Made by a program: the position numbers and the translations under genes
Assembly (NCBI GenBank): GCA_964626665.1
Contig: CAZVGK010000027.1
Location: 1 to 50,487, forward strand
Origin: an uncultured Gemmatimonadota bacterium
GTDB taxonomy: Bacteria; SM23-81; DAOVCL01
DNA length: 50,487 bases
Reading direction: 5' to 3'
Notes under the pieces: generated by a model
What the model saw: the letters and a program-made list of their open reading frames with translations, nothing else
Databases searched by the model: none
Told to the model about the DNA's origin: nothing
Shown: piece by piece, positions 12,442 to 49,050 of the stretch
How the letters are laid out: the number at the start of each line of letters is the position of its first letter
Position numbering within the stretch: position 1 is the stretch's first letter

Positions 12442-12503
12442 CCCTGTTAGGTATCAATAACATCTTGGCAAGAGCCAAAGATTATGGGACTTATCTAACA
12501 GGG
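12442..12503. mobile_element. 62-bp inverted-repeat mini-element inserted in a GTCATTGCGAG repeat
   Basis: Ends CCCTGTTAGGTA / TATCTAACAGGG; removing it plus CTCA restores GTCATTG|CGAGGAGCG. Confidence 0.65.
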
Positions 12504-12837
12504 CGAGGAGCGTAGCGACAAAGCAATCTCATTCTACCCAGCTTTAGCTGGGGTAGGTAGGGCTTTAGCCCGTTTGGAGTGCTGTGGCCCCTGTCACAGC
12601 CTTAATCCAAAAGTGTGCTGTCAGGAGTCACCTCTTCCGCCAGGAATCTCGTCGGAACGGGGCTGACAGTTCTTGAAAAATAAATGGGTGGGGGGAAATC
12701 CCTTAAATCCTGTCATCCCGTCAGAAAAATTCCCACGGGGGCGGCTAAATTTTTGTTTGACAATCATCCTGAGATTCTCTATTTTAAATATGGTTTTAGT
12801 ATCTATCCAGTTTCACCCTATAAATTGGAGGGATAAT

Positions 12838-13104
12838 ATGGGACAGCAAAAAGTTAAGACAAACCTCATCTTTCCTGAAGACCTGCTTAAAACCATAGAC
12901 AGACTTGTTGGTGCTCGGAAACGAACCAAATTCATTGTTGAGGCCACCCAGGAGAAATTAGAACGACTCAGATTCTCTCAGGCCTTAGACAAGGCGGGCG
13001 GTGCTTGGAGAGATAATAACCATCCCGATCTCAAAACCCAGGGTGACATCAACCAATATCTGAGAGAAATCCAAGTGGCCACCAACCAGAGGTTAAAAAA
13101 ATAA
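12838..13104 (+). CDS. Ribbon-helix-helix antitoxin-like protein (no toxin downstream)
   Basis: KTNLIFPEDLLKTIDRLVGARKRTKFIVEA and GAWRDNNHPDL; GGAGG RBS; promoter TTGACA-N17-TATTTT at 12757-12785. Confidence 0.7.
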   Translation: MGQQKVKTNLIFPEDLLKTIDRLVGARKRTKFIVEATQEKLERLRFSQALDKAGGAWRDNNHPDLKTQGDINQYLREIQVATNQRLKK

Positions 13105-13109
13105 TTATT

Positions 13110-13245
13110 CACCACGGATAACCACGGACTATGCACAGAAAAACAGGGATCAGTAATCAGTTTACCAGGATCGGGAACCAGGAATAACCAGCATAAACTT
13201 CATTTTTAATTCTTAATTGCTTTTTCCCGTGAAATTCCGTGGTAA
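13110..13245. repeat. About 135-bp MITE-like dispersed repeat (ACCACGGA...TCCGTGGT ends)
   Basis: Homologous copies at about 24868-25015 and 25824-25925; shared motifs include CAGGGATCAGT, CCAGCAT and TTCTTAATTGCTTT. Confidence 0.75.
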
Positions 13246-13361
13246 ATTATCTATTCGTGTAGATTCGTTTATTCGTGTCATTCGTGTTCCAGAGATTCAG
13301 TGAAATCTGTGGCTGTGTTTGTTGCGGCTTTGCTGTGCCATGTAATCTGCGGATGGAATTG

Positions 13362-13441: not shown

Positions 13442-16400
13442 TTATTTCAGAAGGACCATCTTCTTAATCTCTGTATAGCTACCTGCCTGCAGTCTGTAGA
13501 AGTAGATGCCGCTGGAGACTTCCTTGCCCAAACCATCCCTTCCCTCCCAGCTTACTGAGTAGTAGCCAGGGGCCTGCTCCCTATTTACCAGGGTTCTCAC
13601 CAATTGCCCCCCTATGTTGTAGATCTTCAAACTGAACGCTGATTGCTGACCTGTGCTCGGAACGGCACCGCTGACCGCTGGAATGGCGTAGCGGATGAGG
13701 GTGGTGGGGTTAAACGGATTGGGGTAGTTCTGGGATAAGGCAAATGACTTGGGTATTCCGAGCCGATCGGTTACCTCGTCAACCCCAACACTTGTGTATG
13801 CCATCGCCACATTGGAGAAGCCTGACCAGTTGGGAACCTCATCCGCGGCCTTCATCACAAAGTAGTAAGTGGTGTTGGAAACTAAACCTGTGACCACGCA
13901 GGAGTCCTGCGAACCTGCCGAGGAAGGTGAGGGTTCGTTGAGAACGGTATCCGCGGAAGTCCACCAACTGGCTGTATCGGTCCCCACTGAGGAGGTAGAA
14001 TAGCGAATATCATAACTGGAGGCAGTTCCCGTGTTTCCATCGTCTCCTGGTGCTGTCCATTTCAGGGTAATAGAGGAAGATGAGGAGTCGGTGGCTGTGA
14101 GGTCGGTTATAGCTGCAGGGGGAGTGACATCAGCCACGACATTGAGTAAAATCGCAACATTACTCTGGCCATAATTTGCCAGGGAAAGATCCATTGCACC
14201 ATTTCCGTTCAGATCGGCTGTCTGGATGGAGTAGGGTCCACCGGCAACAGAATAAGTAGTAGCAGAAGCAAAGGTCCCATCGCCGTTGTTCAGCAACACC
14301 GCCGCCTTGCTTAGGCCATACAAACCTGCAGCCAGATCAACATCCCCATCGCCGTCCAGATCACCACTACAGACTGAGTAAGGGCCAGTACCGACGTAGT
14401 AATTAGTCTGCGCCAAAGGGGCTCCACTTCCATCATTAAGCAGAACAGAAACGCTGTCTGAGCTATAGTTCCCAATAGCTATGTCAGAATAACCATCTCC
14501 ATTAAAATCGGCCCCACATATAGCGAATGGCCAAGCTCCTGCAGGATAAAGAGTGGGAGAGCCAAACTGTCCTAACCCAGTGTTTAAAAGCACCGAAACA
14601 TAGTTATACCCATATCCGAGTGGAATTGCCAGGTCGATTGCCCCGTCATTGTTTATATCAATTGGGCAAACCCCATAGGGGAATCCGCCGGCATTATAGT
14701 TTGCGGGCGAAGCGAAAGTTCCATCTCCATTTCCCAACAACACTGAAATATTAGAGGAGTTCAGGTTTGCCGAGAGCAGGTCAATTATTCCATCTCCATT
14801 GACATCGCTGCAGGAGACAGCCCAAGGGCCATCCCCAACGGCATACCTGGTTGTGGAAAGGAAACCTCCAGTTCCATCGTTAAGCATGACAGCAACGCTA
14901 TCTAAGGCGTTATTGGTTACTGCTAAGTCATCGAATCCATCTCCGTTGAAGTCGCCATCGCATATAGAATGTAGCATATCACCGGCATTATAGTTAGTGG
15001 GAGAGGGGAAAGTTCCGTCCCCATTGTTTGAAAGCACTGAGACATTTTGACCGATATAGTTTGCGGTAGCTAAATCTACATCTCCATCTTTGTCCAGATC
15101 ACCATCGGTTATGCAATATGGATTAGTATTGGTACCGGTTGTATAGTTAGATGGGCTACCAAATGTTCCAGCGGTGGGAGTGGTCACCACTACAGTGAAA
15201 CTCCATACATAACCCCCCAAGGATGCCAGCCTTGAGGACTTAATCCCTGTGGATAGTATAACAGTTACCATCTCGCCGTCGTGGAAATCTGTAGTGGGAT
15301 CGAAGGTGACTGTCTTCGTGCCAGAATTATAGCTGATTGTCCCGGAATGGGGGCCTGAGTCAGAGCTATAGACCACCACTGTGGAGCTATTGAGAGTGCT
15401 GGCGTTCATATTCTCATCGAAGGTGGCAGAAATGTTTGTGCCTTTGGCCACATTCAGAGCATTCATAGCTGGCAAGATAGAAACCACCTTGGGGGGTTTA
15501 ACGGTACCTTCTCTGGTAAGTGAGGGATCACCGTAGAGGTTGAAATCGAACATATTCCAGTATTCATGGTAGGAAGTCCAGCCGTAGTTTTGATTGCAAA
15601 AGAGTTTAGAGTCATAGAGGGCGTCACCAACCTTCTCAGATCCATTGGGGCCATTGATCATATAATGATTAAACTCGTAGCACATTGATTCGCCACCGCC
15701 CAAAGGTAAAGTCCACCCCATCACGCCCCAGGATATTCGGGAGGCACTGACGATCCCGGCAGAAGAGCCAAGTGAGGATTTGGTTAACAGATCAACTCCC
15801 AAACGACCCCAGGAATTAGATTCTGGGTACCCTACCAGACAGGACATAGCGAAAACGATTGATGGATGATCATCGTCTATGTTAGAAGAAGTGCTAATGA
15901 AATCGTACCAGGACATCTCGTCAGGGGTCTGCGTTTCAGGAACATTATCTCCATCGTCCGAATTCCAGACCTTCCCGGATGCACTGTTTGACCAGCCGTG
16001 GCCCACCCAGTTTACCACCCCATATTGGCCGTTTCGCCAGTCGCTAGCAAAGGCTGTTGTAGTAAGTGAATCCCAGGAGGAATAAGAGGAGGGAGCTAAT
16101 CCCTTATGTTCGCTATAGTGCTTTTTTGTCCAGCCACTCATGAAGTTGGTCTCGATCAGGTCTAATAAATAGGCGCCATCTGTTACCCCCGCGCCGCTAT
16201 AGTCTTCGTTAGCATACCATAAGATTGCCCCGGCATGCAGAGCCTGGTCCTTCCAGGTTCCGGTATTCCGTTCAAAGGTGGCTAATTTATTAAGGGTAGT
16301 AGTTAACTGGGTGGTATTAGTGGTGGGTATCCGTCCCACATAGACCTCGGCGGCGAAATCGGGCACATCCTGCCCGTATTCCCCGTAGAATCCATCACCA

Positions 16401-17488
16401 TCCCAGTCCCAGGAGATATTGTCTGCCCAGGTCAGATCGGCATAATAGTAATCAGTCGGTACCTCACCCATCAGACTTTCCGGATAGGCAGGGAAAAACG
16501 AATGGTTGCTTGGATCCGGGTAGCAATAACGCATAGGAACAACGCTGTAGTCGCCCACCAGAAGCACATACTTGATTCCCCAGGTGGGGTAATAAGTTCT
16601 CAGGAAGTTACGGATCTTTGCGGCAAGATCGCTCCCCGGCCGGTTGGTGATCAGGGTGTCTGTAGTGAGCACGGTCTTCACCTTGTATCCCAGAGAATCT
16701 TGCTTCCAACTGATGAAGTTGGAGGAGGTTATCCCACTTTGTAGTGCACTGGTGGTGATGATCACATAGTCGTAGGATTGCCCCTTAGGACGGGTGCCTC
16801 TGGGCTGGTACCACCTCTTCCCCTCCAGAAAGTTAAAAAATAATCTTGACGCACGCTCATCAGCTATTGTATCCCACTTTAACCGCTCCATCCTCTTGGC
16901 TTCAGCACTGCCTGGGAGGGGCAGGCTGTACTCCACTGAGACCTGAGCGCCGTCATAATGGATTAACCTTCCCGATTGAGGGTGATAGCCAAAGGGACAG
17001 AAGGAGACCGAGGCATAGGAATACTTTCGCAGACTGCCAGATCCGGTAAGTTTTCCCCTCTCCTTTGGGTAGGCCTGATCTGAGGAATAGATTGCCTGGT
17101 TATTTCTCTTCCATTCCTCTTGCAGCTTTTTCATCAGATCTGAGTTATGGAGTGAAGGCATAATGGGGGGACAGGGGACAATCTTGTAGATTCCAGGAAG
17201 TTGGCTTGTACCCATCCCTTTGACCTCTACCGATAGAACCCTGGCGCCAGGCGGCAGGGCAATCAGGAAGCTCTTGGCTGGAAGCATCGGCTTGCCCGGT
17301 CCCATCAGGTAGCCGAATCCGTCCATCTCGATCCGCTGGCCCTTGTCCACATTGACAATTTGATATTCACCGGCTGTCAGGGTTACGGTCAGATTCTCAG
17401 CGGTTGCTATCGAAACTATAGAAAAGGCTATAGAGAAACTGAGGACCGCCAGGAGAACCTTCAACAAAACAGTATTTTTGGTGTACAT
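13442..17488 (-). CDS. Secreted C25 (gingipain-like) cysteine peptidase with Ig-like, FG-GAP/VCBS, FN3 and FlgD-Ig/T9SS-like C-terminal domains
   Basis: Signal peptide; propeptide PGKPMLP; YVLLVGD, TDYYYADL and VGRIP; catalytic GHG...SC; LYGDPSL; repeated DxNGDGxxDL; WTAPGDDG; QNYPNPFNP...SGIYFYRL. Confidence 0.85.
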   Translation of the reverse strand: MYTKNTVLLKVLLAVLSFSIAFSIVSIATAENLTVTLTAGEYQIVNVDKGQRIEMDGFGYLMGPGKPMLPAKSFLIALPPGARVLSVEVKGMGTSQLPGIYKIVPCPPIMPSLHNSDLMKKLQEEWKRNNQAIYSSDQAYPKERGKLTGSGSLRKYSYASVSFCPFGYHPQSGRLIHYDGAQVSVEYSLPLPGSAEAKRMERLKWDTIADERASRLFFNFLEGKRWYQPRGTRPKGQSYDYVIITTSALQSGITSSNFISWKQDSLGYKVKTVLTTDTLITNRPGSDLAAKIRNFLRTYYPTWGIKYVLLVGDYSVVPMRYCYPDPSNHSFFPAYPESLMGEVPTDYYYADLTWADNISWDWDGDGFYGEYGQDVPDFAAEVYVGRIPTTNTTQLTTTLNKLATFERNTGTWKDQALHAGAILWYANEDYSGAGVTDGAYLLDLIETNFMSGWTKKHYSEHKGLAPSSYSSWDSLTTTAFASDWRNGQYGVVNWVGHGWSNSASGKVWNSDDGDNVPETQTPDEMSWYDFISTSSNIDDDHPSIVFAMSCLVGYPESNSWGRLGVDLLTKSSLGSSAGIVSASRISWGVMGWTLPLGGGESMCYEFNHYMINGPNGSEKVGDALYDSKLFCNQNYGWTSYHEYWNMFDFNLYGDPSLTREGTVKPPKVVSILPAMNALNVAKGTNISATFDENMNASTLNSSTVVVYSSDSGPHSGTISYNSGTKTVTFDPTTDFHDGEMVTVILSTGIKSSRLASLGGYVWSFTVVVTTPTAGTFGSPSNYTTGTNTNPYCITDGDLDKDGDVDLATANYIGQNVSVLSNNGDGTFPSPTNYNAGDMLHSICDGDFNGDGFDDLAVTNNALDSVAVMLNDGTGGFLSTTRYAVGDGPWAVSCSDVNGDGIIDLLSANLNSSNISVLLGNGDGTFASPANYNAGGFPYGVCPIDINNDGAIDLAIPLGYGYNYVSVLLNTGLGQFGSPTLYPAGAWPFAICGADFNGDGYSDIAIGNYSSDSVSVLLNDGSGAPLAQTNYYVGTGPYSVCSGDLDGDGDVDLAAGLYGLSKAAVLLNNGDGTFASATTYSVAGGPYSIQTADLNGNGAMDLSLANYGQSNVAILLNVVADVTPPAAITDLTATDSSSSSITLKWTAPGDDGNTGTASSYDIRYSTSSVGTDTASWWTSADTVLNEPSPSSAGSQDSCVVTGLVSNTTYYFVMKAADEVPNWSGFSNVAMAYTSVGVDEVTDRLGIPKSFALSQNYPNPFNPTTLIRYAIPAVSGAVPSTGQQSAFSLKIYNIGGQLVRTLVNREQAPGYYSVSWEGRDGLGKEVSSGIYFYRLQAGSYTEIKKMVLLK

Positions 17489-17590
17489 TTCCCCCCTCCT
17501 CAATTTTAAGAATTTTGACACAGCTTATCATCGTACTTCCAAATTTTTCTTCTCCTTTACCACCCCCTCGCACTTTATTTTTGCAAAAAT

Positions 17591-17741: not shown

Positions 17742-17756
17742 CAATTTTTGCGGGGC

Positions 17757-18203: not shown

Positions 18204-18531
18204 CTATAATTCAATTCACCTTTCCCAGATGGTAGAACCCCAATCCATCGGATTCCACTTGGGTTTAGGTTCAAAGTGAGGTGGCAGAATCCCGATTCTG
18301 CCACCCTCCTTATTTTGCTGGTAGGTGAGGGCACCTGACGGCTCGTGGGGAGCCCCTCATTCAGTAGTTTGAGATTGCTTCATCCCGATTCCATCGGGAC
18401 TCGCAATGACATTCTATTTTGCGCTCCTGATGGTGCGGCTGCCTTTCTTCTTGGACTCCGCTAAGGCGGAGTGCCTACAGCTATAAGTCTCCCACTGCAA
18501 GGGGATATAGAGGATTTTCGTTCTGAGCCCC

Positions 18532-31155: not shown

Positions 31156-31174
31156 TCTCCTCCTGGTTGAGTTT

Positions 31175-32005: not shown

Positions 32006-32010
32006 GAACG

Positions 32011-34579: not shown

Positions 34580-34711
34580 GGGAATTGGGAGATGTCCCCA
34601 TTTCCCACACCCCCGAGGGGGCAGAAGCCCCCTTCTGCCACTCTTGCCGTCAGAATCGGGGTTCTGACGGCTCAGGGGGAAGACAGCAAGGCTCTTTCAG
34701 CGAATGTTCTA

Positions 34712-37921: not shown

Positions 37922-37924
37922 GAC

Positions 37925-38860: not shown

Positions 38861-38872
38861 TTCGTCCCCCTT

Positions 38873-40513
38873 TCAGATGGATAGTCTGGCAACTTCCCGG
38901 CCGGTAGTTAAGCTATCGAATATTACCCTGGTGACCACAATGGCGGTAAACATACTGGAGATTATACCCAGCATCAGGGTGATGCCAAAACCCTTTATCG
39001 GGCCAGTGCCCACTAAGTAGAGGATCAAAGCGGTGAAGAAGGTGGTTAGGTTGGCATCCAATATGGTGCGAAACGCCCGAGAGTATCCAGCGTCAATGGC
39101 CACCCGGACGGTCTTTCCTGACCTTAGTTCCTCCCTTATCCTCTCAAAGATGAGCACATTGGCATCCACAGCCATACCTATGGTGAGGATGATCCCAGCT
39201 ATCCCCGGGAGGGTGAGAGCCGCCCGCAGTCCAGCCAGGGCAGCCATAATGAAGATGATGTTCAGAACCAGCGCCAGGTCGGCGATCAGCCCGGCCCCCT
39301 TGTAGTAAAAGACCATAAAGAGAACCACTAAGATCATCCCGATTATGGCCGCATTTGTCCCTTGGTGAATAGAATCTTCCCCCAATGAGGGGCCCACGGT
39401 GCGTTCCTCAATGGTATTTACCGGAGCAGGAAGGGCACCTGCCTTGAGCACAATGGCCAAATCCTTAGCCTCCGTCATCCTCCCGATACCGGTGATTATC
39501 GCCCTCCCATCTGGGATCTTTGACTTGATCCGGGGGGCACTGTAAACCTTACCATCCAGGATGATGGCCAAAAGCCGCCCTATGTTGGCCCCAGTCACCC
39601 GGGAGAAGATTCGCGCTCCCCTCCGATCCAACCTCATATTTACCACCGGCCGGTTGGCTATCTCCGGGTCTAAGCCCCTTCCGATGGTCACCTTGGCATC
39701 GGTGAGATGGGCGCCGGTGAGCTCAGGTTTGCGCTTCAGAAGATATAATTTCTTTACCCGTTCCTCGCGATAATTGTCAAACGCGGAACTCCACTCCAGC
39801 TCCATATCGGGAGGAACCAATGCCTTTACCTCTGGACGGCTGAGCAGGCTGTCCACCCGGGGGATGTCCTCCTCGGCGACTATCACTTGACCATAGCTTT
39901 GATCCATAAATTCCATTAAATAGGAGAGGGGGTGTTCCTCCTCTGAGGTGGAAGTTTCTGCCTCTAAGCTCCCGGCTGGGGACTCCTTAAACATCTCCTT
40001 CAGTTTGGTTTCCTCCCCTTTCTTCTCTTTTTCCCCACCAGAGAGGGCTTTGTCCATTCTATCAAAGAGGCCCTTGGCCTCCTTCCCATTCTCCACCAAT
40101 TTGAACTCCAACAGGGCAGTTCGGCCAATAAGTTCCTTAGCTCTCTCTGGATCCTGCAACCCAGGGAGCTCAATGATCATTCTGTCCTTTCCTGCCCTCT
40201 GGATCAGGGGCTCGGAGACCCCAAATTGATCCACCCGGTTACGGATGATCTCCAGTGCCCTATCCACAGCACCCGGGGCCTCCTTTGCGGAGAGCTTCGT
40301 TTTGTCCACCTCAAGTACCAAATGCATCCCTCCCTTAAGGTCTAAACCCAGCTTCACCGCCCTCTTTTCCAATTTGGCCAACTCCCTTGGATCCATCTTC
40401 CCCTTGGCCGCAGTAGACATAATGGCCAACCTCAATGTGGGGTAAAGATACCAGATGGATAGGAGGAGAACCGCGATGATGATGCCGATCTTTACTCCTT
40501 GTCCTCTTCTCAT
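38873..40513 (-). CDS. secD: Protein translocase subunit SecD
   Basis: LGLDLKGG, RVDQFGVSEP, GALP, VGPSLG and GMAVDANVLIFERIREE. Confidence 0.97.
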   Translation of the reverse strand: MRRGQGVKIGIIIAVLLLSIWYLYPTLRLAIMSTAAKGKMDPRELAKLEKRAVKLGLDLKGGMHLVLEVDKTKLSAKEAPGAVDRALEIIRNRVDQFGVSEPLIQRAGKDRMIIELPGLQDPERAKELIGRTALLEFKLVENGKEAKGLFDRMDKALSGGEKEKKGEETKLKEMFKESPAGSLEAETSTSEEEHPLSYLMEFMDQSYGQVIVAEEDIPRVDSLLSRPEVKALVPPDMELEWSSAFDNYREERVKKLYLLKRKPELTGAHLTDAKVTIGRGLDPEIANRPVVNMRLDRRGARIFSRVTGANIGRLLAIILDGKVYSAPRIKSKIPDGRAIITGIGRMTEAKDLAIVLKAGALPAPVNTIEERTVGPSLGEDSIHQGTNAAIIGMILVVLFMVFYYKGAGLIADLALVLNIIFIMAALAGLRAALTLPGIAGIILTIGMAVDANVLIFERIREELRSGKTVRVAIDAGYSRAFRTILDANLTTFFTALILYLVGTGPIKGFGITLMLGIISSMFTAIVVTRVIFDSLTTGREVARLSI

Positions 40514-40525
40514 CTTTGCTCCCTA

Positions 40526-41236
40526 TTAGCTTACCAGTTCCTTCATCTCCCTTACCGCCCTCTCCAGACCAACGAAGAGGGCGCGGGCGATGATGGAAAA
40601 CCCAATGTTTAACTCCTCAACAACCTCTATCTGGGCCACCCCGCGCACATTCCTGTAGTTCAACCCATGGCCTGCGCCCACCCCTAAACCCAGTTTGTGG
40701 GCCATAGTGGCCATCTCCTCCAGCCTTTCCAACTCCTCGAGCTCAGCGGCGGTATCCTCCGCTCCCGCATATCGGCCCGTGTGGAGCTCCACGAAGTCCG
40801 CATCTAACTTGGCCGCTGCCTTTATCTGCTGGGGCTGCGGATCAATGAATAGGCTAATTACAATGTTCCTTTCCCGAATTGCCTTTAAGATAGGGGGAAG
40901 CGAATGGGCCTTCTCCGCCACATCCAATCCCCCTTCTGTGGTCAGCTCCTCCCTTTTCTCCGGCACCAGGGTGACCATATCAGGCCCGACCTCCTGGGCT
41001 ATAGAGGCCATCTCCTCGGTAGGAGCCATCTCCATATTAAGATGGGTCTTGACCATCTGGCGCAAAAGCCTTAGGTCCCTATCCTGGATATGCCTCCTAT
41101 CCTCCCGGAGATGGACGATGACCCCATCTACCCCGGCCATCTCCACCAGCAGCGCGCCGGCCACCGGATCGGGCTCATTCCCCCTGCGGGCCTGCCTCAG
41201 GGTGGCTATGTGATCAACATTTACGGACAGCCTCAT
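40526..41236 (-). CDS. pdxJ: Pyridoxine 5'-phosphate synthase
   Basis: [42 protein letters not shown] and AGHGL. Confidence 0.97.
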
Positions 41237-42321
41237 CTTCCTACCTTTCTCTGCAAGATCTGGGAGGGGAGGACAAACCTGATGCCCTTTCCCTCCAATT
41301 TAGGCCTCTCCTCTTCGATTAACTGCCAGGTCTGGGCTGATAGCCTACCCACTCCAACTGCCTCCCCCTTCATCCAAGCGAGCCGCGCCAGCCTTCTCAA
41401 TTTGCCCAAAATATATTCTTTCCTCCCCCTCTTGTCAATGAAATCTTCAGAAAAAACGATCATTGGCTTTCCCCTAAGGGATTTGTCCTTAAGCTGATAA
41501 TTTACCACGAGATACTTCCCCTTAAGTTCCTTCTGGATTTTAGGCAAAAGACCCCTAGCGGCCTCAGAGCCAAAGGAGAGATCGAGCCCTTCCGCCTGAG
41601 GAAAGTAATCGATGATCTTCTGCACCCTCCCCCTTATCTGGGTCGGTTCCATATCTGCCCGCACCTCCCATCTTCCCATTCCCCACAAGGGGAGGGAGGG
41701 AAAGGGGAGGGCAATAAAAACCTCCTTCCCGCTGGCCTGCGCCCTCTGTAGCCATTTCCGTTCGCTCCCCGGAAGGAAGGAAAGGGCCAAGGGGAGATCT
41801 GATTTGAGAACCTGAGCCAAAAGGGTAGCCTTCCCCCCTTTAAAATTCTGCAGGATAAGGGCTAACTTCGCCGGCCTGGCGGCAATTAGAGGGTCTCTCT
41901 CCACCAGTAGGAGATGGGTGGCCCTTTTCCCCGACCCGACCCTCAGGGAGAGACTTTTGCCCCTATTTAACTCCACCCCTTCGATAAAATGGGCGTCTGA
42001 TCCCTGAAGCAGATGGTTTAGGCTCTGCTGGAAGTAAAGAAGTGAATAGGTATCGGATATTCTGATCTTTTCCTTTTTGATCCCCCCCTCTCCCCAGAAA
42101 CTGGCCACCTTCCCCTTGTCCACACCAAACTGCACCAGAACCGAATCAATGGCCTCATCAACCACCTCCGGTCTGGGGAATCTGCTCCCCCTCCTCAGGG
42201 AGAGTATCCCCAGGACCAAGAGGAAAAGGGAGAAACCAACCACAAGAAGGGAAGGGAGGTGGAAACGATTCCCTTTACCCTTCCCTCGGTGGCTCTGCGA
42301 GGTCCTTTTAGGCAAAGCCAT
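41233..42321 (-). CDS. Membrane-anchored divergent polysaccharide deacetylase-like protein (YibQ-like, degenerate)
   Basis: N-terminal TM; overall pattern [33 protein letters not shown], but the metal-binding residues are missing. Confidence 0.6.
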
Positions 42322-42364
42322 TAACTAAACTTATCCTCCATGATAGGTCTGTAAGTTTTGGCCT

Positions 42365-42913
42365 TCAAAATTCAGACTCGTCCTTCCAATGGACAATATA
42401 CCAGAAACCTGTATCCTCATCCTTCCTGAATTTGAACTCCGCCTGACCATGGGCCCACTCCCCCATTGCTGGATACTCCTGCCAGAGGACGACCAACTCA
42501 AATCCCACCAGATAGACTATTCTGGTTTCCGAGAAGGGATTATCCCCCTTGGAAGGTTCTATAGAGCTTTCCGGCTCTCCCAACCAGGTGAGGCGGATGC
42601 TCTTATGGAAATATTTAAAGAGGCTCTCCGTGCGCTTCAGATCCTCGGCCTTACCATAGCTCTCCCAGTTCCCCTTCCCATCATCAAACCATGCGAATTG
42701 AAAGTTCTCATCTAAGCATTGCTCGTATGCCTTGAGGTCTCGATTCTCATAGGCGTATCTAAAGTTCTGCAGCACATTATCTGGAGAGACGGGCTTAAGC
42801 AAAGGTTCTCCTCCCTCCCTGCTGTTATCCTGAGCCGGAGAGAAGGGGTTCAAACACCCCATCCCCCAGAGGGGGATGAGGGAAAGGGCAAGTATTAAGA
42901 GTTTCTTTCCCAT
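42365..42913 (-). CDS. Lipoprotein, possibly NTF2-like fold
   Basis: Lipobox GMGC-LNPFSP; SPDNVLQNFRYAYENRD..Y..CL; C-terminal WYIVHWKD. Confidence 0.6.
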   Translation of the reverse strand: MGKKLLILALSLIPLWGMGCLNPFSPAQDNSREGGEPLLKPVSPDNVLQNFRYAYENRDLKAYEQCLDENFQFAWFDDGKGNWESYGKAEDLKRTESLFKYFHKSIRLTWLGEPESSIEPSKGDNPFSETRIVYLVGFELVVLWQEYPAMGEWAHGQAEFKFRKDEDTGFWYIVHWKDESEF

Positions 42914-43372
42914 ACCTGTTGAAGATAACAAAAATTTCTTCCCTGTCAAGGTTTTAACCTGGGCTATTCACAAATTTAGCCCTGTACTACAATCTTGCAA
43001 GATCTTGTTTTTTGGGCAAAGTTCTTTGAGTCGTTTGAGTAGCCAACTTCTACCGCACTTTAGTGCGGGTCCCCTGGGAGTGTGTCAACTCCTGTTGACG
43101 CATGCTGTGACAGGAGCCCCTAGCACTCCAAAAGGGCTAAAGCCCAGGAGAGGTTAGCCCCCGCTTTGCGGGGGTAGAGGGTCTCTGTCATTGCGAGTCC
43201 CGATTAAATCGGGGTGAAGCAATCCCCTGAAGATTGCTTCGCTGGGCTCGCCCTGTTAGATAATCCCTCTTGCTCTTTGTGGATGTTACCATCCACAAAG
43301 GGAGGACTTTCTGGTAGGGCAGGAACCCTACCAGTACAGAAAATAGAAAGTGTCCTTATTCTTCCCCCCTTC

Positions 43373-43496
43373 CACCTAAAAGGTGAAAACCTATAGTTGT
43401 GTAGGTCCTTGTAAAATCCGTGAAAATCTGTGTTCACCCCGTGAAATACGAAAGTATATTTAACGGGGTTCATCCGCCGCTTATGGGTATTTTGGG
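43373..43496. repeat. About 120-bp direct repeat, copy 1 (contains a 32-bp mini-element at 43437-43468)
   Basis: CTAAAAGGTGAAAACCTATAGTTG...TTCA[CCCCGTGAAATACGAAAGTATATTTAACGGGG]TTCA...TATTTTGGG; copy 2 at 48861-49050. Confidence 0.85.
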
Positions 43497-43803
43497 TTTA
43501 TTGAACTGGGCTTACCTGTGCTGGAGGTTTACCAGATCTAATTGCGCGGCAAAAAGGTTGAAAATTGGCTGGCCGCAATGTTAAAATCTCGGGTTGTTCA
43601 CAAACCGATGACGAATTAGCATATCTCTTTCAAACTTAAGGCCTTATGTGTCTGCTTTGTAAGGACAGAGCTAAAGCCCTGCTCCTACAACATAAAGCCT
43701 CTAACAATCGGGGATCTCCCCGCTAATTTATGAAGAGGTCAGCCTACTACACTTTGGGATGGGCGCAGCGGTTTTAGGCTTTGAGGGGGCCATAAAAAAA
43801 GGG

Positions 43804-43832
43804 TTGACAATACCCTACCATTTTACTATTAT
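43804..43832 (+). promoter_or_regulatory. sigma70 promoter of rrf2
   Basis: TTGACA-N17-TATTAT ending 7 nt before the ATG. Confidence 0.65.
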
Positions 43833-43839
43833 ATCGGAG

Positions 43840-44280
43840 ATGAAACTGTCCACTAAGGGGAGATATGCGGTGAGGGCTATGCTAACCCTGGCCTTGAACC
43901 AAGGGGGAAATCCCTTATCCCTGCGGGAGATCTCCCTGCGGGAGGGGATCTCCGATAAGTATTTAGGGCAGATATTTCTCAGGCTGAAAAGGGTGGGACT
44001 GGTCAGGACGGTAAGGGGAGCAAATGGGGGCTACCTCTTAGGTAAGGGGGCAAAGGAGATCACTCTCAGGGAGATCCTGGAAGGGGTAGAGGGCTCCTTA
44101 GCTCCGGTATTTTGCTTAGAGGAGGGGTGCGAACGGGCGGCCAAGTGTGTTGCCCATAGGCTCTGGAGGGAGTTGTATGGCGTCATAAAGGGTTTTCTCT
44201 CCTCCAGGACCCTCTTTGACCTCTGCCAACTTGCCAAAGAGGGGAATCCTTTGACCCCAGATTTGGAAAAGGCTGAATGA
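43840..44280 (+). CDS. Rrf2-family (IscR-like) transcriptional regulator
   Basis: MKLSTKGRYA and VRGANGGY; three cysteines plus His (CLEEGCERAAKCVAH). Confidence 0.9.
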   Translation: MKLSTKGRYAVRAMLTLALNQGGNPLSLREISLREGISDKYLGQIFLRLKRVGLVRTVRGANGGYLLGKGAKEITLREILEGVEGSLAPVFCLEEGCERAAKCVAHRLWRELYGVIKGFLSSRTLFDLCQLAKEGNPLTPDLEKAE

Positions 44281-44440
44281 CACCGCAACAACCACGCGAA
44301 CACTTGCATTTCCTTGCGGTCTCCAATTTCCGGTTCTCTGTCGGGATAAGACTGCAGAGGCAGCACTTCTAGCTGGCTTCATAATAGTAACTTCTTAAAA
44401 TTTGTGCCAAGTTTTGCAGCCAGCAATTGTAAATTGTTCA

Positions 44441-44470
44441 CCCCGTTAGATGATCTTATATCTAACGGGG
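44441..44470. mobile_element. 30-bp inverted-repeat mini-element
   Basis: TTCA[CCCCGTTAGATGATCTTATATCTAACGGGG]CAAG. Confidence 0.6.
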
Positions 44471-44681
44471 CAAGGATTGAAAATTGAAAATATCAAAATG
44501 AAAGCCAAGCTATAAGCTTAACAGGGTGGAAGCAACAATAATTTTTACTTTTACACTTTGCAATTTTCAATTTGAAATTCGGAGCTTCGCCCAGTTTGGG
44601 TTGCTATACCTCGTCGGTTTGCCCGTCCCGGGCCGGGAAGGCGAAGCTTCGTTAGGAAACCTTTTGGATGAAGGGGGAGGA

Positions 44682-45851
44682 ATGTCGCATTTAATATATC
44701 TGGATCACAACGCCACCACTCCAATGGCCCCAGAGGTGCTGGAGGCTATGCTTCCCTATTTAAAAGGAGAGTATGGCAACCCCTCCAGCATCTACAGGTT
44801 GGCCCAGGAGGCCAGGGAGGCGGTGGAATCGGCCAGAGAGGAGGTGGCCGGCCTCTTGGGGGCTCATTCAGCGGAGATTTACTTTACCAGCGGGGGGAGC
44901 GAGGCGAACAACTGGGCGATAAAGGGGATGGCATTCGCCGCGCAGGGAAGGGGCAACCACATCATTACCTCGCAGATAGAGCACCCCTCGGGCTTGAATG
45001 TCTGCCGATATTTAGAGGAGTTAGGATTTCAGGTGACTTGGGGTGCTGTGGATAAGTTTGGGGTGGTGGATGTGGAGCAGATCGCTGACTCCATTAGTGA
45101 GCGAACGATACTGATTACCATTATGTCTGCCAACAACGAGGTGGGAACCATCGAACCGGTGGAGGACATAGCCAAGCTAGCCCAAGAAAGGGGGATCCCC
45201 TTCCATACCGATGCAGTGCAGGTGGTGGGCAAATTGCCCCTAAATGTGGATAAGTTAGGGGTTGACCTGCTTTCCCTCTCCGGCCACAAGTTCTATGGGC
45301 CAAAGGGGATTGGTGTCCTCTACATTAAGAGGGGGACAAAGCTCCCTCCCTTCCATCACGGGGGTCACCATGAAAGGGGGATGAGAGCCGGAACGGAGAA
45401 TGTCCCCGGGATAGTGGGGTTGGGTAGGGCCGCCCAGCTAGCCCAGGAGGAGATAAAGAAGGAGGGGAAGGTAAAGGAGCTGAGGGAGAAACTCTGGCAA
45501 GGCCTTTCATCCCACATAGACGACATCATCCTCAACGGGCACCCGAAGAGGAGGCTTGCTGGCACCCTCAATGTCTGCGTCAAATGGGTGGAGGGTGAAT
45601 CTATGCTTTTAAACCTGGATATGGAGGGCATAGCCGCCTCCAGCGGCTCTGCCTGCACCTCTGGCTCTTTGGAGCCTTCCCATGTCCTCATGGCTATGGG
45701 CATTCCCCCCGAGATGGCCCATGGCTCTCTTCGCTTCAGCCTGGGGAGGGAAACCAGCGAGGAGGAGATAGCCAAGGTAATTGAGGTCCTTCCCCCAATT
45801 GTGGAGAAGCTAAGGGCCATCTCCCCCTTTGGCAAGGGTAAGCCGCTATGA
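44682..45851 (+). CDS. nifS: Group I cysteine desulfurase (NifS/IscS)
   Basis: YLDHNATT, FTSGGSEANN, HTDAVQ, SGHKFYGPKG and SSGSACTS; GGGGGAGG RBS. Confidence 0.95.
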   Translation: MSHLIYLDHNATTPMAPEVLEAMLPYLKGEYGNPSSIYRLAQEAREAVESAREEVAGLLGAHSAEIYFTSGGSEANNWAIKGMAFAAQGRGNHIITSQIEHPSGLNVCRYLEELGFQVTWGAVDKFGVVDVEQIADSISERTILITIMSANNEVGTIEPVEDIAKLAQERGIPFHTDAVQVVGKLPLNVDKLGVDLLSLSGHKFYGPKGIGVLYIKRGTKLPPFHHGGHHERGMRAGTENVPGIVGLGRAAQLAQEEIKKEGKVKELREKLWQGLSSHIDDIILNGHPKRRLAGTLNVCVKWVEGESMLLNLDMEGIAASSGSACTSGSLEPSHVLMAMGIPPEMAHGSLRFSLGRETSEEEIAKVIEVLPPIVEKLRAISPFGKGKPL

Positions 45852-46756
45852 AAGAGGAGAATCTAAGGGAAGAGATCGGGGAGCTGAAGGGGGAGAAGGG
45901 GGCCTTACTCCTGGCCCATAACTATCAATCCCCCCAGGTCCAGGAGATAGCCGATTTTTTGGGCGACTCCTTAGATCTCTCCCGCAAGGCCAGGGACTCT
46001 GATGCGCAGCTTATCTGCTTCTGTGGGGTGAGGTTTATGGCCGAATCGGCAAAGATTCTCTCCCCCGGGAAGACCGTCCTCCTCCCCCGCAAGGAGGCCC
46101 TCTGTGAGATGGCCGCTATGGTGAACCTGCCGGAGCTGAGGGCCTTAAAGGTCAAACATCCGCAGGCTGTGGTGGTGAGCTATGTGAACACCACAGCGGA
46201 GGTGAAGGCCGAATCCGATGTTTGCTGCACATCGGCCAATGCGGTTAAGGTGGTGCAAAACCTGAAAGAGGATGAGGTCATCTTTCTCCCTGACCGGAAC
46301 TTGGCCTCCTGGGTCTCCCGATTTACCTCTAAGAAGATAATTCCTTGGGATGGCTACTGTTATGTCCACGAGAGGTTTACCTCGGAGGATGTAAAGGAGG
46401 CCAGGAGGCTCCATCCTCAGTCGGTGGTTATCGTCCATCCAGAGTGCAGGCCTGAGGTGGTCGACCTGGCCGACAGGGTGGAGAGCACGGGGGGGATGGT
46501 CAGGCTGGCCCAGGAGGTGCAGGCGGAGGAGTTTATCATTGGCACGGAGGAGGGCTTGATCGAGAGGCTGCGGCGGGAGAACCCCGGGAAAAGGTTCTAC
46601 TCCGTGGGGCCGGCCAGGATGTGCCGGGGGATGAAGTATATTAGGCTGGAGGATGTCTACCTATCCCTTAAGGAGGAGAGGTTTAAGGTGGAGCTTCCTC
46701 AGACGATAATAGAGGGGGCGAGAAAAGCTTTGGATAGGATGTTAGAGTATGGTTGA
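45848..46756 (+). CDS. nadA: Quinolinate synthase
   Basis: LAHNYQ, GDSL, FCGVRFMAE, YVNT, CTSAN, HPEC and GTE; three Fe-S cysteines. Confidence 0.96.
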   Translation: MKEENLREEIGELKGEKGALLLAHNYQSPQVQEIADFLGDSLDLSRKARDSDAQLICFCGVRFMAESAKILSPGKTVLLPRKEALCEMAAMVNLPELRALKVKHPQAVVVSYVNTTAEVKAESDVCCTSANAVKVVQNLKEDEVIFLPDRNLASWVSRFTSKKIIPWDGYCYVHERFTSEDVKEARRLHPQSVVIVHPECRPEVVDLADRVESTGGMVRLAQEVQAEEFIIGTEEGLIERLRRENPGKRFYSVGPARMCRGMKYIRLEDVYLSLKEERFKVELPQTIIEGARKALDRMLEYG

Positions 46757-47789
46757 TCTGGTTGCTGTGGCTATGTCCGGAGGGGTGGACAGTGGGGTGG
46801 CTGCCGCCCTCCTAAAAAAGGAGGGTTACGCAGTTGTGGGATTGACTATGTTCCTTTGGGGGAAAGGTCCCCGGTGTTGTTCTCCCGCAGAGGTGAGGGC
46901 CGCTCGCCAGCTCGCCCGCAAGCTGGGTATCCCCCATTATACCATTGATCTGCGGGCCAATTTCCAGAAGGAGGTGGTAGATTACTTTTTAAATGAGTAT
47001 AGAAGGGGGAGAACGCCGAACCCCTGTGCGGTCTGTAACCAGAGGATAAAGTTTGGTTTGCTTCTGAGGAGGGCCCTTTCCCTGGGGGCTAAGTATTTGG
47101 CCACTGGCCACTATGCCCGGCTGCAGGCCCAAGATGGGAGGATCTCCTTGAGGAGGGGGGTGGATGCCCAAAAGGATCAATCTTACTTCTTGGCTAGGTT
47201 AGATCAGGGGATGCTGGGCTTGGTCCTCTTCCCTATAGGGGGACTAAAGAAGCAAGAGGTGAAGAAAATGGCTCGGGAACTTGGTCTCTCCTTAGAGGGG
47301 GAAAAGGAGAGCCAGGAGGTCTGTTTTGTCCCGTCGAAGGAATTGCCCTCCTTCCTCAAGGGGAGGTTGGGAGGGGAGCAAGCTAAGATAATAGACAAAG
47401 AGGGTAATTTTTTGGGAACCACTAAAAACCCTTATGGTTACACCATTGGCCAGAGGAAGGGGTTACAGGTGGCCGGGGGTGAACCTCTCTATGTCTTGGA
47501 GGTGAAGCCTAGCGGGGAGATAGTTTTAGGTGAGGAGAAGGACCTATATGCCCAGGTGCTTTGGGCAACTCAGCCTAATTGGATAGAGGAGGAACCACAG
47601 GGGGAGCTACGGGCCTGGGTGAAGATCAGGAGTCGGCAGGAACCTTCCCCGGCCTTGCTCACCGCCCAGGGAGAGAGGGTAAAGGTGGCATTTGATCTTC
47701 CTCAGAGGGCGATTACCCCGGGGCAGTTGGCCGTATTCTACCAGGGGGATACGGTCTTAGGGAGCGGATGGATAGAGGAGATAGGATGA
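46749..47789 (+). CDS. mnmA: tRNA 2-thiouridine(34) synthase
   Basis: AMSGGVDS, TPNPCAVCN, ATGHY, KDQSYFL, ESQEVCF, YTIGQRKG and ITPGQ. Confidence 0.96.
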   Translation: MVDLVAVAMSGGVDSGVAAALLKKEGYAVVGLTMFLWGKGPRCCSPAEVRAARQLARKLGIPHYTIDLRANFQKEVVDYFLNEYRRGRTPNPCAVCNQRIKFGLLLRRALSLGAKYLATGHYARLQAQDGRISLRRGVDAQKDQSYFLARLDQGMLGLVLFPIGGLKKQEVKKMARELGLSLEGEKESQEVCFVPSKELPSFLKGRLGGEQAKIIDKEGNFLGTTKNPYGYTIGQRKGLQVAGGEPLYVLEVKPSGEIVLGEEKDLYAQVLWATQPNWIEEEPQGELRAWVKIRSRQEPSPALLTAQGERVKVAFDLPQRAITPGQLAVFYQGDTVLGSGWIEEIG

Positions 47790-48748
47790 GAGCAGTGGTT
47801 CTCTACTCTGGGGGACTGGACAGCAAGCTGGTTCTCAGGCTTATCCTGAATCAGGGCCTCCACCCCTTAGCCCTCACCTTCTTCACCCCCTTCACCCCAC
47901 CTCAGCTGACGGAACCTCCCCTCTCCGGGGTGGAATATAGAAATACCATCTTTGGTCAGGAGTATATAGATTTGGTAAAATCCCCCTCCTATGGCTGGGG
48001 GAAAAATATGAACCCCTGCATTGACTGCCGCATCTATACCCTAAAGATTACCAAAGAGGTTATGGATGAGGTGGGGGCTCCCTTTATAGTCACCGGTGAA
48101 GTTCTCGGCCAGAGACCGATGTCCCAAAGAAGGGATACCTTCAGGTTGATAGAGAAAGAGGTCGGGTTGGAAGGGCTGATCCTCAGGCCACTTTCGGCCA
48201 AGCTATTGCCGATTACCGTCCCGGAGAAGGAGGGATGGATAAGGAGGGGGGCTCTGTTGAACATCCGGGGAAGGAGCCGCAAGCCCCAGATGGAACTGGC
48301 CAAGCAGTGGGGGATAGGGGGCTATCCTTCTCCGGCTGGGGGTTGTCGGCTTACCGATCCTAATTTCTCCCACAGGTTAAGGGAGGCCTTGAGTTTCGGG
48401 GAAGATAGCCTGCGGGATATGGAGCTGCTTAAGTTGGGGAGGCACTTTCGGCTCCCCTCCGGGGCAAAGGTGGTGGTAGGGAGGGACGAAGAGGAGAACG
48501 GCAAACTCTCCTCCTTGGCCTCTTCCGATGGTCACCTTTTGGAAGTAGTGGGCTTCCCCGGGCCGCTGACCTTTTTAAGCAAGGGGAAAGGAGAAGAAGA
48601 TTTGAGAAGTGCCGCCTCCCTCTGTGTCCGCTATAGCGATGGGGAGGGGGCGGTAGAGGTGAGAACCAGGAGGAAGGGAAAGGAGATTGACCTCCTACGG
48701 GTTCCTCCTTTGGAGGAGGGGAAAATCCTCGAATACAGGTTAGGATAA
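47786..48748 (+). CDS. ThiI/MnmA-like PP-loop protein with a DUF814-type C-terminus
   Basis: SGGLDS, NPCIDCR, TGEVLGQRPMSQ, LRPLSAK, PAGGC and GRHFR..GRDEEEN. Confidence 0.8.
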   Translation: MRAVVLYSGGLDSKLVLRLILNQGLHPLALTFFTPFTPPQLTEPPLSGVEYRNTIFGQEYIDLVKSPSYGWGKNMNPCIDCRIYTLKITKEVMDEVGAPFIVTGEVLGQRPMSQRRDTFRLIEKEVGLEGLILRPLSAKLLPITVPEKEGWIRRGALLNIRGRSRKPQMELAKQWGIGGYPSPAGGCRLTDPNFSHRLREALSFGEDSLRDMELLKLGRHFRLPSGAKVVVGRDEEENGKLSSLASSDGHLLEVVGFPGPLTFLSKGKGEEDLRSAASLCVRYSDGEGAVEVRTRRKGKEIDLLRVPPLEEGKILEYRLG

Positions 48749-48860
48749 CCTGAGACTACTGGATGACCAATAATCCCGGATTATGCGTTAGGGAACCACA
48801 AGATTATCACAAGATATTCAAAATAAGGAGCTCACAAAAATTGAGTTTAAACCCCTCTTT

Positions 48861-49050
48861 CATCTAAAAGGTGAAAACCTATAGTTGGGTAGATTCTTGT
48901 AAAATCTGTGAAAATCCGTGTTCACCCCGTTAAATAATTTAGAAATAGACATCATCGCATCCCCAAGCTTGCTTTTATTTAACGGACTTCACCCCGTGAA
49001 ATACGAAAGTATATTTAACGGGGTTCATCTGTGGTTTATGCATATTTTGG
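48861..49050. repeat. About 120-bp direct repeat, copy 2, with two tandem mini-elements
   Basis: TTCA[48925-48987]TTCA[48992-49023]TTCA; otherwise homologous to 43373-43496. Confidence 0.85.

Follow-up and report, generated by a model that had tools for sequence, protein, structure and literature searches.

The window, a 50,487-nt contig of an uncultured Gemmatimonadota bacterium (contig C27 of the assembly labeled G000), carries very small, gene-less repeats that are very probably mini-elements mobilized in trans, each following an 'element + 4 nt at YTNR' insertion rule. In each, a pair of 12-bp inverted arms (CCCYGTTARATA ... TATYTAACRGGG) encloses an unconstrained, AT-rich center, and T-T-Y-A (or C-T-Y-G) usually stands before the arm on either strand. 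Judged by their sequences, they are tagged-palindrome mobile elements of very small size and make up a putatively new family or superfamily, distinguished by ends that are conserved across many phyla and by an unusual flank rule. The reading of their movement that we tentatively favor is that of gene-less, 'TTYA-tagged' hairpin mini-elements, akin to repetitive extragenic palindromes (REPs) and MITEs (miniature transposable elements with inverted repeats), which are moved in trans, probably as single-stranded hairpins. The genome that contains the window (3.17 Mb in 63 contigs, 99.65% complete, 48.9% G+C) was compared with genomes of the same genus (G001 and G002) and with loci fetched from other lineages; C-numbers below denote contigs and L-numbers fetched loci.

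Chance does not account for these ends. Within the window, 14 matches to CCCYGTTARAT were found at up to one mismatch, against 4.23 ± 2.31 in shuffled versions, and none of 100 shuffles reached 14; two of the matches (at 13583 and 21192) were isolated and chance-like. Genome-wide, the exact 12-mer CCCYGTTARATA occurred 113 times and its reversed control three times, while at up to one mismatch there were 203 ends versus 99 for the control, and 150 ends formed 75 pairs. A first-pass annotation of the window had recorded six elements and a solitary left end, all of which were confirmed from the sequence with the same coordinates and flanks. They are listed here with the repeats that host them (in flank formulas, elements stand in brackets).

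12430-12527, minus strand: host hairpin repeat H2 (ATTGCTTYG, a loop, then CTCG CAATGACA) with an element of family 7; uninterrupted copies with a 15-nt loop exist.
12438-12503, minus strand: inserted unit of family 7, made up of the 62-bp element 12442-12503 and a carried 4-mer (CTCA on the plus strand, TGAG on the minus strand).
12504-12507: the host's own 4-mer at the family 7 site (CGAG on the plus strand, CTCG on the minus strand); the flanks of element 12442-12503 are CTCA/CGAG.
33712-33803: H2 hairpin repeat around an element of family 10; uninterrupted H2 copies with a 9-nt loop have a single CTCG.
33724-33785, minus strand: 62-bp element of family 10, between exact 4-bp direct repeats CGAG at 33720-33723 and 33786-33789 (CTCG on the minus strand).
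43251-43262, plus strand: solitary left end (CCCTGTTAGATA), the remainder replaced by other hairpin repeats (TGTGGATGTTACCATCCACA and others).
43437-43468, plus strand: 32-bp element B (12-bp arms, 8-bp center), between TTCA at 43433-43436 and TTCA at 43469-43472, in a truncated copy of host repeat H1 at about 43364-43496.
44441-44470, plus strand: 30-bp element (12-bp arms, 6-bp center) with flanks TTCA/CAAG; its host, repeat H3, is made up of arrayed units of ATTGTAAATTG type.
48775-49051, plus strand: host repeat H1, about 200 bp without inserts, foldback and MITE-like, with ends that begin CCCGGATTATGC and arms of units of about 9 bp (CACAGATTN).
48925-48987, plus strand: 63-bp element A, its right arm degenerate (TATTTAACGGAC), with flanks TTCA/TTCA; first in the stack TTCA[A]TTCA[B]TTCA.
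48992-49023, plus strand: 32-bp element B, second in the stack, identical to 43437-43468, with flanks TTCA/TTCA.

Elements were dispersed over at least 40 contigs of this genome, measured 30-99 bp, and in no copy contained a gene. Their paired ends fell into discrete lengths of 30 (6 pairs), 32 (11), 34 (3), 60 (1), 62 (14), 63 (18), 67 (4), 74 (6), and 95-99 bp (11), some of the last being A+B stacks read across a decayed inner arm. Clustering of the interiors gave about 19 families, including B (11 copies) and family 10 (seven members, five of which have CTCG/CTCG flanks), and each length class comprised one or a few families with unrelated centers; the three long interiors of the window belong to three different families. 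Thus, of the 'fixed length' that the first-pass annotation had emphasized, discrete, gene-less length classes stand, while in this genome the fixity itself mostly mirrors family membership. The long, gene-enclosing copies that it had also envisaged were absent from this genome, and the sole long pair (2736 bp, C25:37540-40275) was rejected as an autonomous copy, being a chance pair with mismatched ends inside an open reading frame of 911 aa. The elements share terminal inverted repeats without coding capacity with MITEs of DDE insertion sequences, and are short, high-copy, mostly intergenic palindromes as are REPs and REP doublets forming hairpins (REPINs). Within a sample of the phylum, the 12-mer was enriched only in this genus, with 27 occurrences versus one for the control in G001, four versus four in G002, and none in four other genomes. 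Orphan ends in G001 and G002 were considered as ends of large elements and proved to belong to small elements of the ordinary kind, with a single mismatch in the partner arm. The smallest member, of 29 bp (L038:2629-2657, on G001 contig C200), has 12-bp arms around a center of about 5 nt and CTCG/CAAG flanks, and lies in what appears to be coding sequence. No Rfam family reached its gathering score in the window, and a cyanobacterial origin was dismissed, with HIP1 occurring only 12 times.

The insertion rule emerged from the host repeats, within which nearly every element in this genome sits. Empty and filled copies of four host repeats differed by the element plus 4 nt every time. Insertion adjoined a pre-existing YTNR 4-mer, that is, a short, T-rich site. 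The second 4-mer either repeated the host 4-mer exactly and in direct orientation or was TRAA/CGAG, a sequence that moves along with the element and does not duplicate the host's.

The H2 repeat (ATTGCTTCG-loop-CTCG CAATGACA) was matched by a regex at 164 places in the genome, and its loops measure 9, 15, 17, 21, 28, 35, and 39 nt. It is itself a modular repeat that draws on at least seven discrete loop modules, of which several are small hairpins. In the window, H2 lies at 4499, 12380-12425, 18374-18411, 22696-22790, 33838-33900, and 43184-43223. Empty copies read CTCG CAATGAC, and filled copies CTCG[X]CTCG or CTCG[X]CGAG, where X is any element. Specifically, families 10 and 14 occupied H2 with a 9-nt loop as CTCG[X]CTCG, while family 7 was located between CTCG and CAATGAC in four loop variants (15, 21, 28, and 39 nt), where CTCG[X] was invariably followed by CGAG or TGAG, and each of these four variants was also found uninterrupted. 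This is the clearest evidence of independent, site-specific insertion. Since the second 4-mer of family 7 was always CGAG or TGAG opposite a host CTCG, it is not a copy of the target. The first-pass annotation had argued that the CTCA at 12442 arrived with its element, given that removing both restores the host repeat, and uninterrupted 15-nt-loop copies (e.g., C15:50999) bear this out. That one flanking 4-mer often accompanies the element was likewise upheld by the four family 7 loop variants and by C26:37201, which reads TTCG[X]CGAG and for which five uninterrupted hosts carry TTCG. Similarly, empty copies of host repeat H4 have the sequence GTAAAA TGAA GAATGT, and filled ones have GTAAAA TTCA[X]TGAA GAATGT.

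Other flanks covaried as direct repeats, namely TCCA[A]TCCA (an empty host with TCCA exists), CTGG[X]CTGG versus five CTCG[X]CTCG in family 14, and TTTA[B']TTTA. Counted by hand in this genome, 34 of 74 elements had exact direct 4-mers, 19 had exact inverted ones, and 21 neither. Hence, the earlier proposition that the 4-mers are not target duplications holds for the carried class, but many flanks are genuine 4-bp target duplications, which the first-pass annotation had not seen.

About 25 copies of H1 exist in the genome, two of which are in the window (48775-49051, and a partial copy at 43364-43496). Their insertion site is a TTCA between two right-arm units (...aatctgYg TTCA tctgYgg...). 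Seven insert-free copies of H1 type had a single 4-mer there: TTCA in five (C4:74288, C10:42611, C14:72152, C23:24927, and one on C17), TCCA in one (C14:78478), and CTCA in one (C2:39173). Filled forms comprised TTCA[A]TTCA, TTCA[B]TTCA, TTCA[A]TTCA[B]TTCA, and TTCA[B]TGAA. The before-and-after pair described from the window is therefore real, but its members are paralogous copies of the ~200-bp foldback repeat rather than one locus at two times.

Tandem stacking at one site, with elements arranged head to tail around a 4-nt spacer, was substantiated by six stacked junctions at several loci of the genome; a stricter pattern gave five junctions at a spacing of 4 and one at 9, with spacings of 0-3, 5-8, and 10-12 unrepresented. 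Because stacks recur at several loci with this spacing, an assembly artifact at 48925-48991 is ruled out. The six junctions, together with the presence of the same stack in another assembly (Zixibacteriota, L150), indicate that the stacked form has itself been copied. Moreover, the spacer orthologous to the 48925 stack is bare in G002, where it is only about 60 bp, and holds a different insert in G001, so the whole block is a lineage-specific arrival. Elements A and B keep a single orientation relative to their hosts; many copies descend from copied composites, and few independent orientation events are therefore represented. Four copies with identical flanks show that the composite of H3 and the 30-bp element was also copied as a unit.

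The same ends extended well beyond the single window to which the first-pass annotation had access. A scan of one genome per species with the pattern CCCCGTTARATA-N(10-40)-TATYTAACRGGG, which limits length to 64 bp, returned at least 120 stretches from at least 83 assemblies (counted by accession prefix) with at least 17 phylum-level names (taken from record titles). Among the matches listed, carriers belonged to Bacteroidota (including the isolate Mucilaginibacter sp. OK098), Ignavibacteria, Cloacimonadota (including a single-cell genome), Calditrichaceae, WOR-3, Stahlbacteria, Omnitrophota, Planctomycetota, Nitrospinota, Thermodesulfovibrionales, Latescibacterota, Zixibacteriota, Armatimonadota, Desulfobacteraceae, Bdellovibrionales, and Gammaproteobacteria, as well as an actinobacterial metagenome-assembled genome (MAG) and many groups of the candidate phyla radiation (CPR). 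All 50 carriers that were re-searched had exact 12-mer ends, 1-196 in each versus 0-2 for the reversed control, and carrier genomes of 0.6-1.0 Mb had 8-22. Counts of 140-196 were reached in assemblies of Cloacimonadota and Bacteroidota, while the cultured Mucilaginibacter sp. OK098 has two elements. In the matches listed from other genomes, interiors were rich in AT, bore no relation to one another, and were conserved at no position outside the arms. A looser regex applied to the fetched loci (at least 120) gave 137 elements with a mode of 61-62 bp, 89 of which measured 59-64 bp, and an unbiased listing of single ends gave mostly 58-63-bp pairs in the three genomes listed. Host repeats also recurred elsewhere, both arms of CGCAGAT-type units and CTCG|CAATGAC, as did stacks with 4-nt spacing (L066, L150, and L151). 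The paired pattern had no matches in the viral contigs of IMG/VR.

One insertion interrupted a protein-coding gene. In two Cloacimonadota assemblies (L138 and L090), the 3′ end of a gene for a four-helix-bundle protein (PF05635) is interrupted by an element and reads ...CTTAA[X]TAAA TTTAAT..., versus ...CTTAA TTTAAT... in the intact gene of a third genome (L105), a difference of X + 4 without duplication. Additionally, two Cloacimonadota loci (L183:1454-1654 and L187:2060-2880) hold, immediately adjacent to IS200-like Y1 genes, 64-bp variant elements with ends CCCCGTAAGATA / CCCCGTATGATA and flanks of TTCA/TAAA or TTTA/TGAA, by which the motif family is wider than CCCYGTTARATA.

Flanks outside this genome were tabulated for 133 non-redundant elements (266 ends) among the matches listed. 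Reading inward, the four bases before each arm were T, T, Y, A, with a purine at -5; specifically, TTTA was found at 82 and TTCA at 73 of the ends, which otherwise had CTCG or CTTG. TTYA faced inward at both ends of 52 elements, for which the inverted repeat is effectively 16 bp, at one end of 51, and at neither end of 30. The mirror product, with TRAA inward at both ends, did not occur among the 133. Exact 4-bp direct repeats flanked 38-40 of 133-137 elements and comprised 13 different 4-mers, never extending beyond 4 bp and with complementary outer bases (T..A or C..G) in all 13 types; a single family had TTTA/TTTA in L058 and L102 versus TTGA/TTGA in L124. In the non-duplicated class, one side was TRAA (or CGAG/CAAG) and the other variable. 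Leaving aside the TRAA of direct repeats, the variable side was always pyrimidine-rich, with CTTG seven times versus CAAG none, TCCA twice versus TGGA none, and CCCG twice versus CGGG none. Target sites shared only about five bases, R-T-T-Y-A.

In the favored reading, movement in trans as single-stranded hairpins, an enzyme encoded elsewhere would recognize the folded stem of 12-16 bp and would cut at the foot of the stem on its 5′ side and 4 nt beyond the stem on its 3′ side. The hairpin and its 3′ tetranucleotide would be pasted 3′ of a TTYA-like tetranucleotide, where the carried TRAA would pair with the target and lengthen the stem. Renewed insertion at a regenerated 4-mer accounts for the head-to-tail stacks and their 4-nt spacing. 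Such a single-strand model, patterned on IS608, explains the carried tetranucleotide, the polarity of the products, the tetranucleotide-plus-hairpin architecture, and the tiny size of the elements. Those of 29-34 bp are too short to loop two double-stranded ends together, and fold readily. Double-strand staggered-cut models (a DDE transposase, piggyBac-like carried overhangs, or Tn916-like coupling sequences) explain the 4-bp target duplications and the two-fold symmetry of the target logo, and given heteroduplex flanks can explain the carried tetranucleotide as well. They are contradicted in that they predict mirror products as often as the products seen among the listed elements, and need synapsis of ends 6-40 bp apart. 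Of the candidates for the enzyme, a HUH/Y1 single-strand transposase, of the kind found in IS200/IS605 elements and among REP-associated tyrosine transposases (RAYTs), seems the likeliest, though in itself it is less likely than not.

Several features are shared with these known systems. The insertion site of IS608 lies 3′ of TTAC; the transposon retains a 3′ TCAA of its own, and the donor joint neither gains nor loses sequence (PMC3201880; PMC8266576). Like IS200/IS605 members, the elements (in their inverted and 'other' flank classes only) insert directly 3′ of a T-rich tetranucleotide without duplication and keep a 3′ tetranucleotide of their own, and in both cases the donor would be left with one tetranucleotide and a hairpin is the recognition feature (PMC3201880). 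However, IS608 has two different subterminal hairpins, internal guides, and cleavage 19 and 10 nt from the hairpins (PMC3201880), whereas the elements form one hairpin from both ends, abutted by the tetranucleotides, with only end-to-end pairing conserved, and, again unlike IS200/IS605, many of them have true 4-bp target duplications. REPs and REPINs with their RAYT (TnpA-REP) transposases, and likewise the palindromic repeats that Di Nocera et al. 2013 termed 'tagged', carry a GTAG or CGTC tag, and REP stems are species-specific (PMC3733652, PMC8266576). Like these, the elements are short, high-copy, mostly intergenic palindromes with a tetranucleotide directly 5′ of the stem; they occur in clusters, nested among other hairpin repeats, and are presumed to be mobilized in trans by an enzyme acting on single-stranded DNA. 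They differ in their TTYA (or CTYG) tag, in a 12-bp stem conserved across many phyla, in a long and free loop, typically of 38 nt, and in exact boundaries, at the foot of the stem plus 4 nt.

Results from the flanks and from the search for an enzyme weigh against movement as single-stranded hairpins. The exact 4-bp direct repeats, at a third to half of copies, lie outside the single-strand scheme and need a second route or a different enzyme. Copies of one family have different direct repeats (CTCG versus CTGG in family 14, TTCA versus TCCA in family A), and exact, covarying 4-bp repeats are the signature of a staggered double-strand cut; to our knowledge, HUH enzymes make no such cuts. The flank logo is two-fold symmetric, with R at -5 on both sides and complementary outer positions of the 4-mer, which a dimer acting on double-stranded DNA would fit. 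Orientation relative to flanking genes, a weak proxy for replication direction, was unbiased (13:12 and 14:11). Furthermore, none of the eight Y1_Tnp loci of this genome, each with its own different inverted repeats or hairpins, and none of 20 IS200-like loci fetched from carriers was flanked by the elements, which sets them apart from a REPtron. A Y1 gene is immediately followed downstream by a 64-bp variant element (ends CCCCGTAWGATA, flanks TTCA/TAAA) in two Cloacimonadota, but that gene is bracketed by different, GCGAG...CTCGC hairpins. Nine of the 50 carriers had no Y1 hit, three of them with 10-22 ends, and one incomplete MAG (G077, 10 ends) had none of Y1, DDE_Tnp_1, rve, or Resolvase. 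Absence of an enzyme family is weak evidence where, as here, the carriers are MAGs.

In favor of a Y1 enzyme, Y1_Tnp was detected at eight loci here and in 41 of the 50 carriers versus 6 of 14 control genomes. Besides its Y1 loci, this genome has 16 Phage_integrase hits, four DDE_Tnp_1 loci, and one rve locus, the last five loci having other ends, and lacks DDE_5. In five small carriers, DDE_Tnp_1 and rve were each found in one and Resolvase in four, while serine recombinases were present in 12 of the 14 controls. No full-length element with these ends was found in G000, G001, or G002, nor among the loci listed from other genomes (at least 120, from at least 83 assemblies), though multi-copy insertion sequences may drop out of MAGs. 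The trans-acting mover that the first-pass annotation had postulated is thus retained, since without an autonomous copy whichever enzyme moves the elements has to work in trans. Among those at least 120 foreign loci, no protein family recurred beside the elements except for four PF05635 genes. PF05635 was present in 46 of 50 carriers versus one of 14 controls, which were not taxon-matched, yet it was rejected as the linked enzyme because it also occurs in the element-free relatives G003 and G006; PF05635 cassettes are frequent hosts.

Two Y1 genes (C5:112879 and C2:27927) are present in the element-rich G001 and not in the element-poor G002, and were considered as partners, but are unconvincing because each is flanked by its own different hairpin family. 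The gene at C2:27927 has an 85%-identical orthologue in G001 and none in G002. It is flanked (L014, C2:27500-28400) by members of the same family as the TGTGGATGTTACCATCCACA hairpin at window positions 43275-43300, next to the solitary end at 43251. At C21:24600-31000 (L009 and L010), two near-identical RAYT-like Y1 genes of 224 aa are separated by 3 kb. Hairpins of AAAATAGGGACACTTCCTATTTT type bracket each of them, and this pair looks like a REPtron of another repeat family.

Alternative arrangements of the ends were rejected. A guide within the element is not supported, as by inspection the flanking 4-mer did not covary with interior positions adjacent to the arms. A 16-bp terminal inverted repeat with a duplication outside it is inconsistent with the 4-mers beyond the tags, which were unrepeated in the nine elements inspected, and with a filled-minus-empty difference of X + 4 and not X + 8. 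A strand-specific hairpin with G-T wobble fails because the tag wobble and the CCCT/AGGG wobble are on opposite strands.

The elements could instead be ordinary MITEs of DDE type, with 12-bp terminal inverted repeats and a 4-bp stagger at T-N-N-A / C-N-N-G that yields target duplications, an explanation that we consider rather unlikely. Inverted flanks (TTCA...TGAA) would then arise later by hairpin-templated (quasipalindrome) correction, or from 4-nt overhangs carried over from the donor, as are the flank overhangs of piggyBac-type cut-and-paste transposition. The perfect terminal inverted repeats, the direct repeats of 13 kinds that never exceed 4 bp and differ between copies of one family, the symmetric target context with complementary outer positions in 13 of 13 4-mers, and the lack of strand bias relative to genes all agree with this explanation, as does the occurrence of B in the same host site as TTCA[B]TTCA and TTCA[B]TGAA, which secondary conversion would yield. 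However, no autonomous copy exists in G000, G001, G002, or the foreign loci listed, and about 93 of the 133 elements listed outside this genome lack direct repeats. Both the conversion and the carried-overhang models predict the mirror product, or purine-rich variable flanks, equally often, and neither was seen among those 133; moreover, double-stranded ends 6-10 bp apart are not synapsable in the usual way. Bacterial MITEs such as Correia, Nezha, and Chunjie have terminal inverted repeats, no gene, and, at many copies, short direct repeats. The elements resemble them in being nested in other repeats and in having several sequence families that share one pair of ends, but are far smaller (down to 29-30 bp), have no parent insertion sequence that we could find, lack a target duplication at most copies, and have ends conserved across phyla.

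It is conceivable, though we think it unlikely, that the elements are a hitherto unrecognized class of ultra-small mobile DNA, found across much of the bacterial domain and including CPR genomes of 0.6-0.9 Mb. They would be moved by a non-classical enzyme, either an unrecognized hairpin-specific nuclease/ligase or a conserved housekeeping enzyme, with the 12-16-bp stem, conserved across many phyla, as the sole sequence-specific feature that all copies share. Either a 4-bp duplication or a carried 4-nt 'coupling' tetranucleotide would be the outcome, and elements could accumulate at a single site.

The first-pass annotation had likened the elements to sites of tyrosine recombinases and to the coupling sequences of Tn916. 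In that improbable case, a site-specific recombinase (tyrosine, Tn916-like, or serine) would act on a circle with a joint of right arm, 4 nt, and left arm, and thereby carry coupling sequences. The joint, TATTTAACGGGG-TTCA-CCCCGTTAAATA, is indeed a perfect palindrome with an asymmetric core, or with the outer bases included, 13-bp arms around TC. Recombinase core sites have the 12-6/8/10-12 layout that the short elements show, a carried 4-mer is frequent, insertion is orientation-specific, stacks have an exact 4-nt spacing, and four of the five small carriers have serine recombinases, though so do most controls. Yet the targets share only R-T-T-Y-A, with no arm-like sequences, and a 4-bp overlap fits neither enzyme type, the overlaps of known tyrosine recombinases being 6-8 bp and those of serine recombinases 2 bp; a 2-bp crossover cannot produce TC at one flank together with GA at the opposite one. 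The mirror, or sister, product that heteroduplex coupling predicts is also missing from the 133 listed elements. Tn916-type elements encode a tyrosine integrase and have heterologous coupling sequences of 6-7 bp, in contrast to the 4-nt junction and the lack of a gene in every copy here. No recombinase gene was located inside or beside elements in the foreign loci listed and no link to a tyrosine recombinase was found, with the Phage_integrase hits of this genome left unclassified. This is the weakest of the three mechanism models (single-strand, double-strand staggered-cut, and recombinase). The dif site of this genome, which we presume from a short dif consensus to be C45:13179-13206 (GGTTCGCATAA GAAACA TTATGTAAACT), offers no mimicry, as its candidate XerD-type arm TTATGTAAACT is unlike the GTTARAT of the element ends.

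The elements also resemble integron attC sites ('59-base elements') in part. Both are imperfect palindromes of about 60 bp with a free center, and the GTTARAT / ATYTAAC in the arm of the elements fits the attC core consensus GTTRRRY / RYYYAAC. An attC site has the inverse core RYYYAAC on the 5′ side and the core GTTRRRY on the 3′ side, whereas the elements, whichever strand is read, begin with the GTTARAT arm and finish with the ATYTAAC arm, and they are dispersed rather than in cassette arrays. With the two motifs in opposite order, the elements are not attC sites.

That the elements are not independently mobile, and are conserved structural or protein-binding hairpins carried as passengers of larger repeats and by recombination between repeats, is very improbable: most families here are always in the same host repeat with conserved flanks, and composites (H1 with A and B, H3 with the 30-bp element, H4 with a 95-99-bp element) were copied as units, but family 7 occupies the same position in four loop variants that each exist uninterrupted, A and B occur in several unrelated host variants, a gene is interrupted in two Cloacimonadota, flanks covary as target duplications, and the same ends occur in unrelated contexts across phyla. 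Spread solely by duplication of host repeats is contradicted for family 7, and may apply to other families. The window locus is contained in 24 public runs, all salt-marsh metagenomes, and contigs over the window, short unitigs that are uninformative on this point, gave no allele of the same locus that differs by an element. Unitigs of four runs were aligned to 30500-50487 and had joints, for example from 48919 to 49023 (skipping 103) and from 48986 back to 48920 (back 67). These joints prove neither excision nor circles, as other copies of the repeats can yield them.

Taken together, the elements work like REPs/REPINs and IS200/IS605 mini-elements and partly look like MITEs, but have the defining features of none of these. 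The small dispersed repeats of heterocyst-forming cyanobacteria, reportedly described by Elhai et al. 2008 as very small mobile repeats nested in other repeats, differ in sequence and taxa. No description of these ends appeared in the literature searched, and since ISfinder and Elhai et al. 2008 were outside the comparison, an earlier description is possible. A full-text match to an 11-mer (PMC3969353) proved to be an artificial oligonucleotide.

If the elements are what we propose, the same mini-element with 12-base ends is present from Bacteroidota and Planctomycetota to the tiny genomes of the CPR, would be among the most widely distributed small repeats known, and would mark horizontal exchange among uncultured lineages. 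Because the flank pattern, with exact 4-bp duplications, carried tetranucleotides, and an absent mirror product, fits no textbook transposition chemistry, discovery of the enzyme could bring to light a novel mechanism by which hairpin DNA is cut and joined. On the practical side, such elements would break MAG assemblies, interrupt genes (as in the four-helix-bundle gene of Cloacimonadota), and remodel intergenic regions, which is of relevance to annotators.

Finally, the window also encodes, at 13442-17521 on the minus strand, a protein of 1359 aa that combines a peptidase C25 domain, FG-GAP repeats, and domains of Ig-like and fibronectin III type with a C-terminal sorting domain for type IX secretion.

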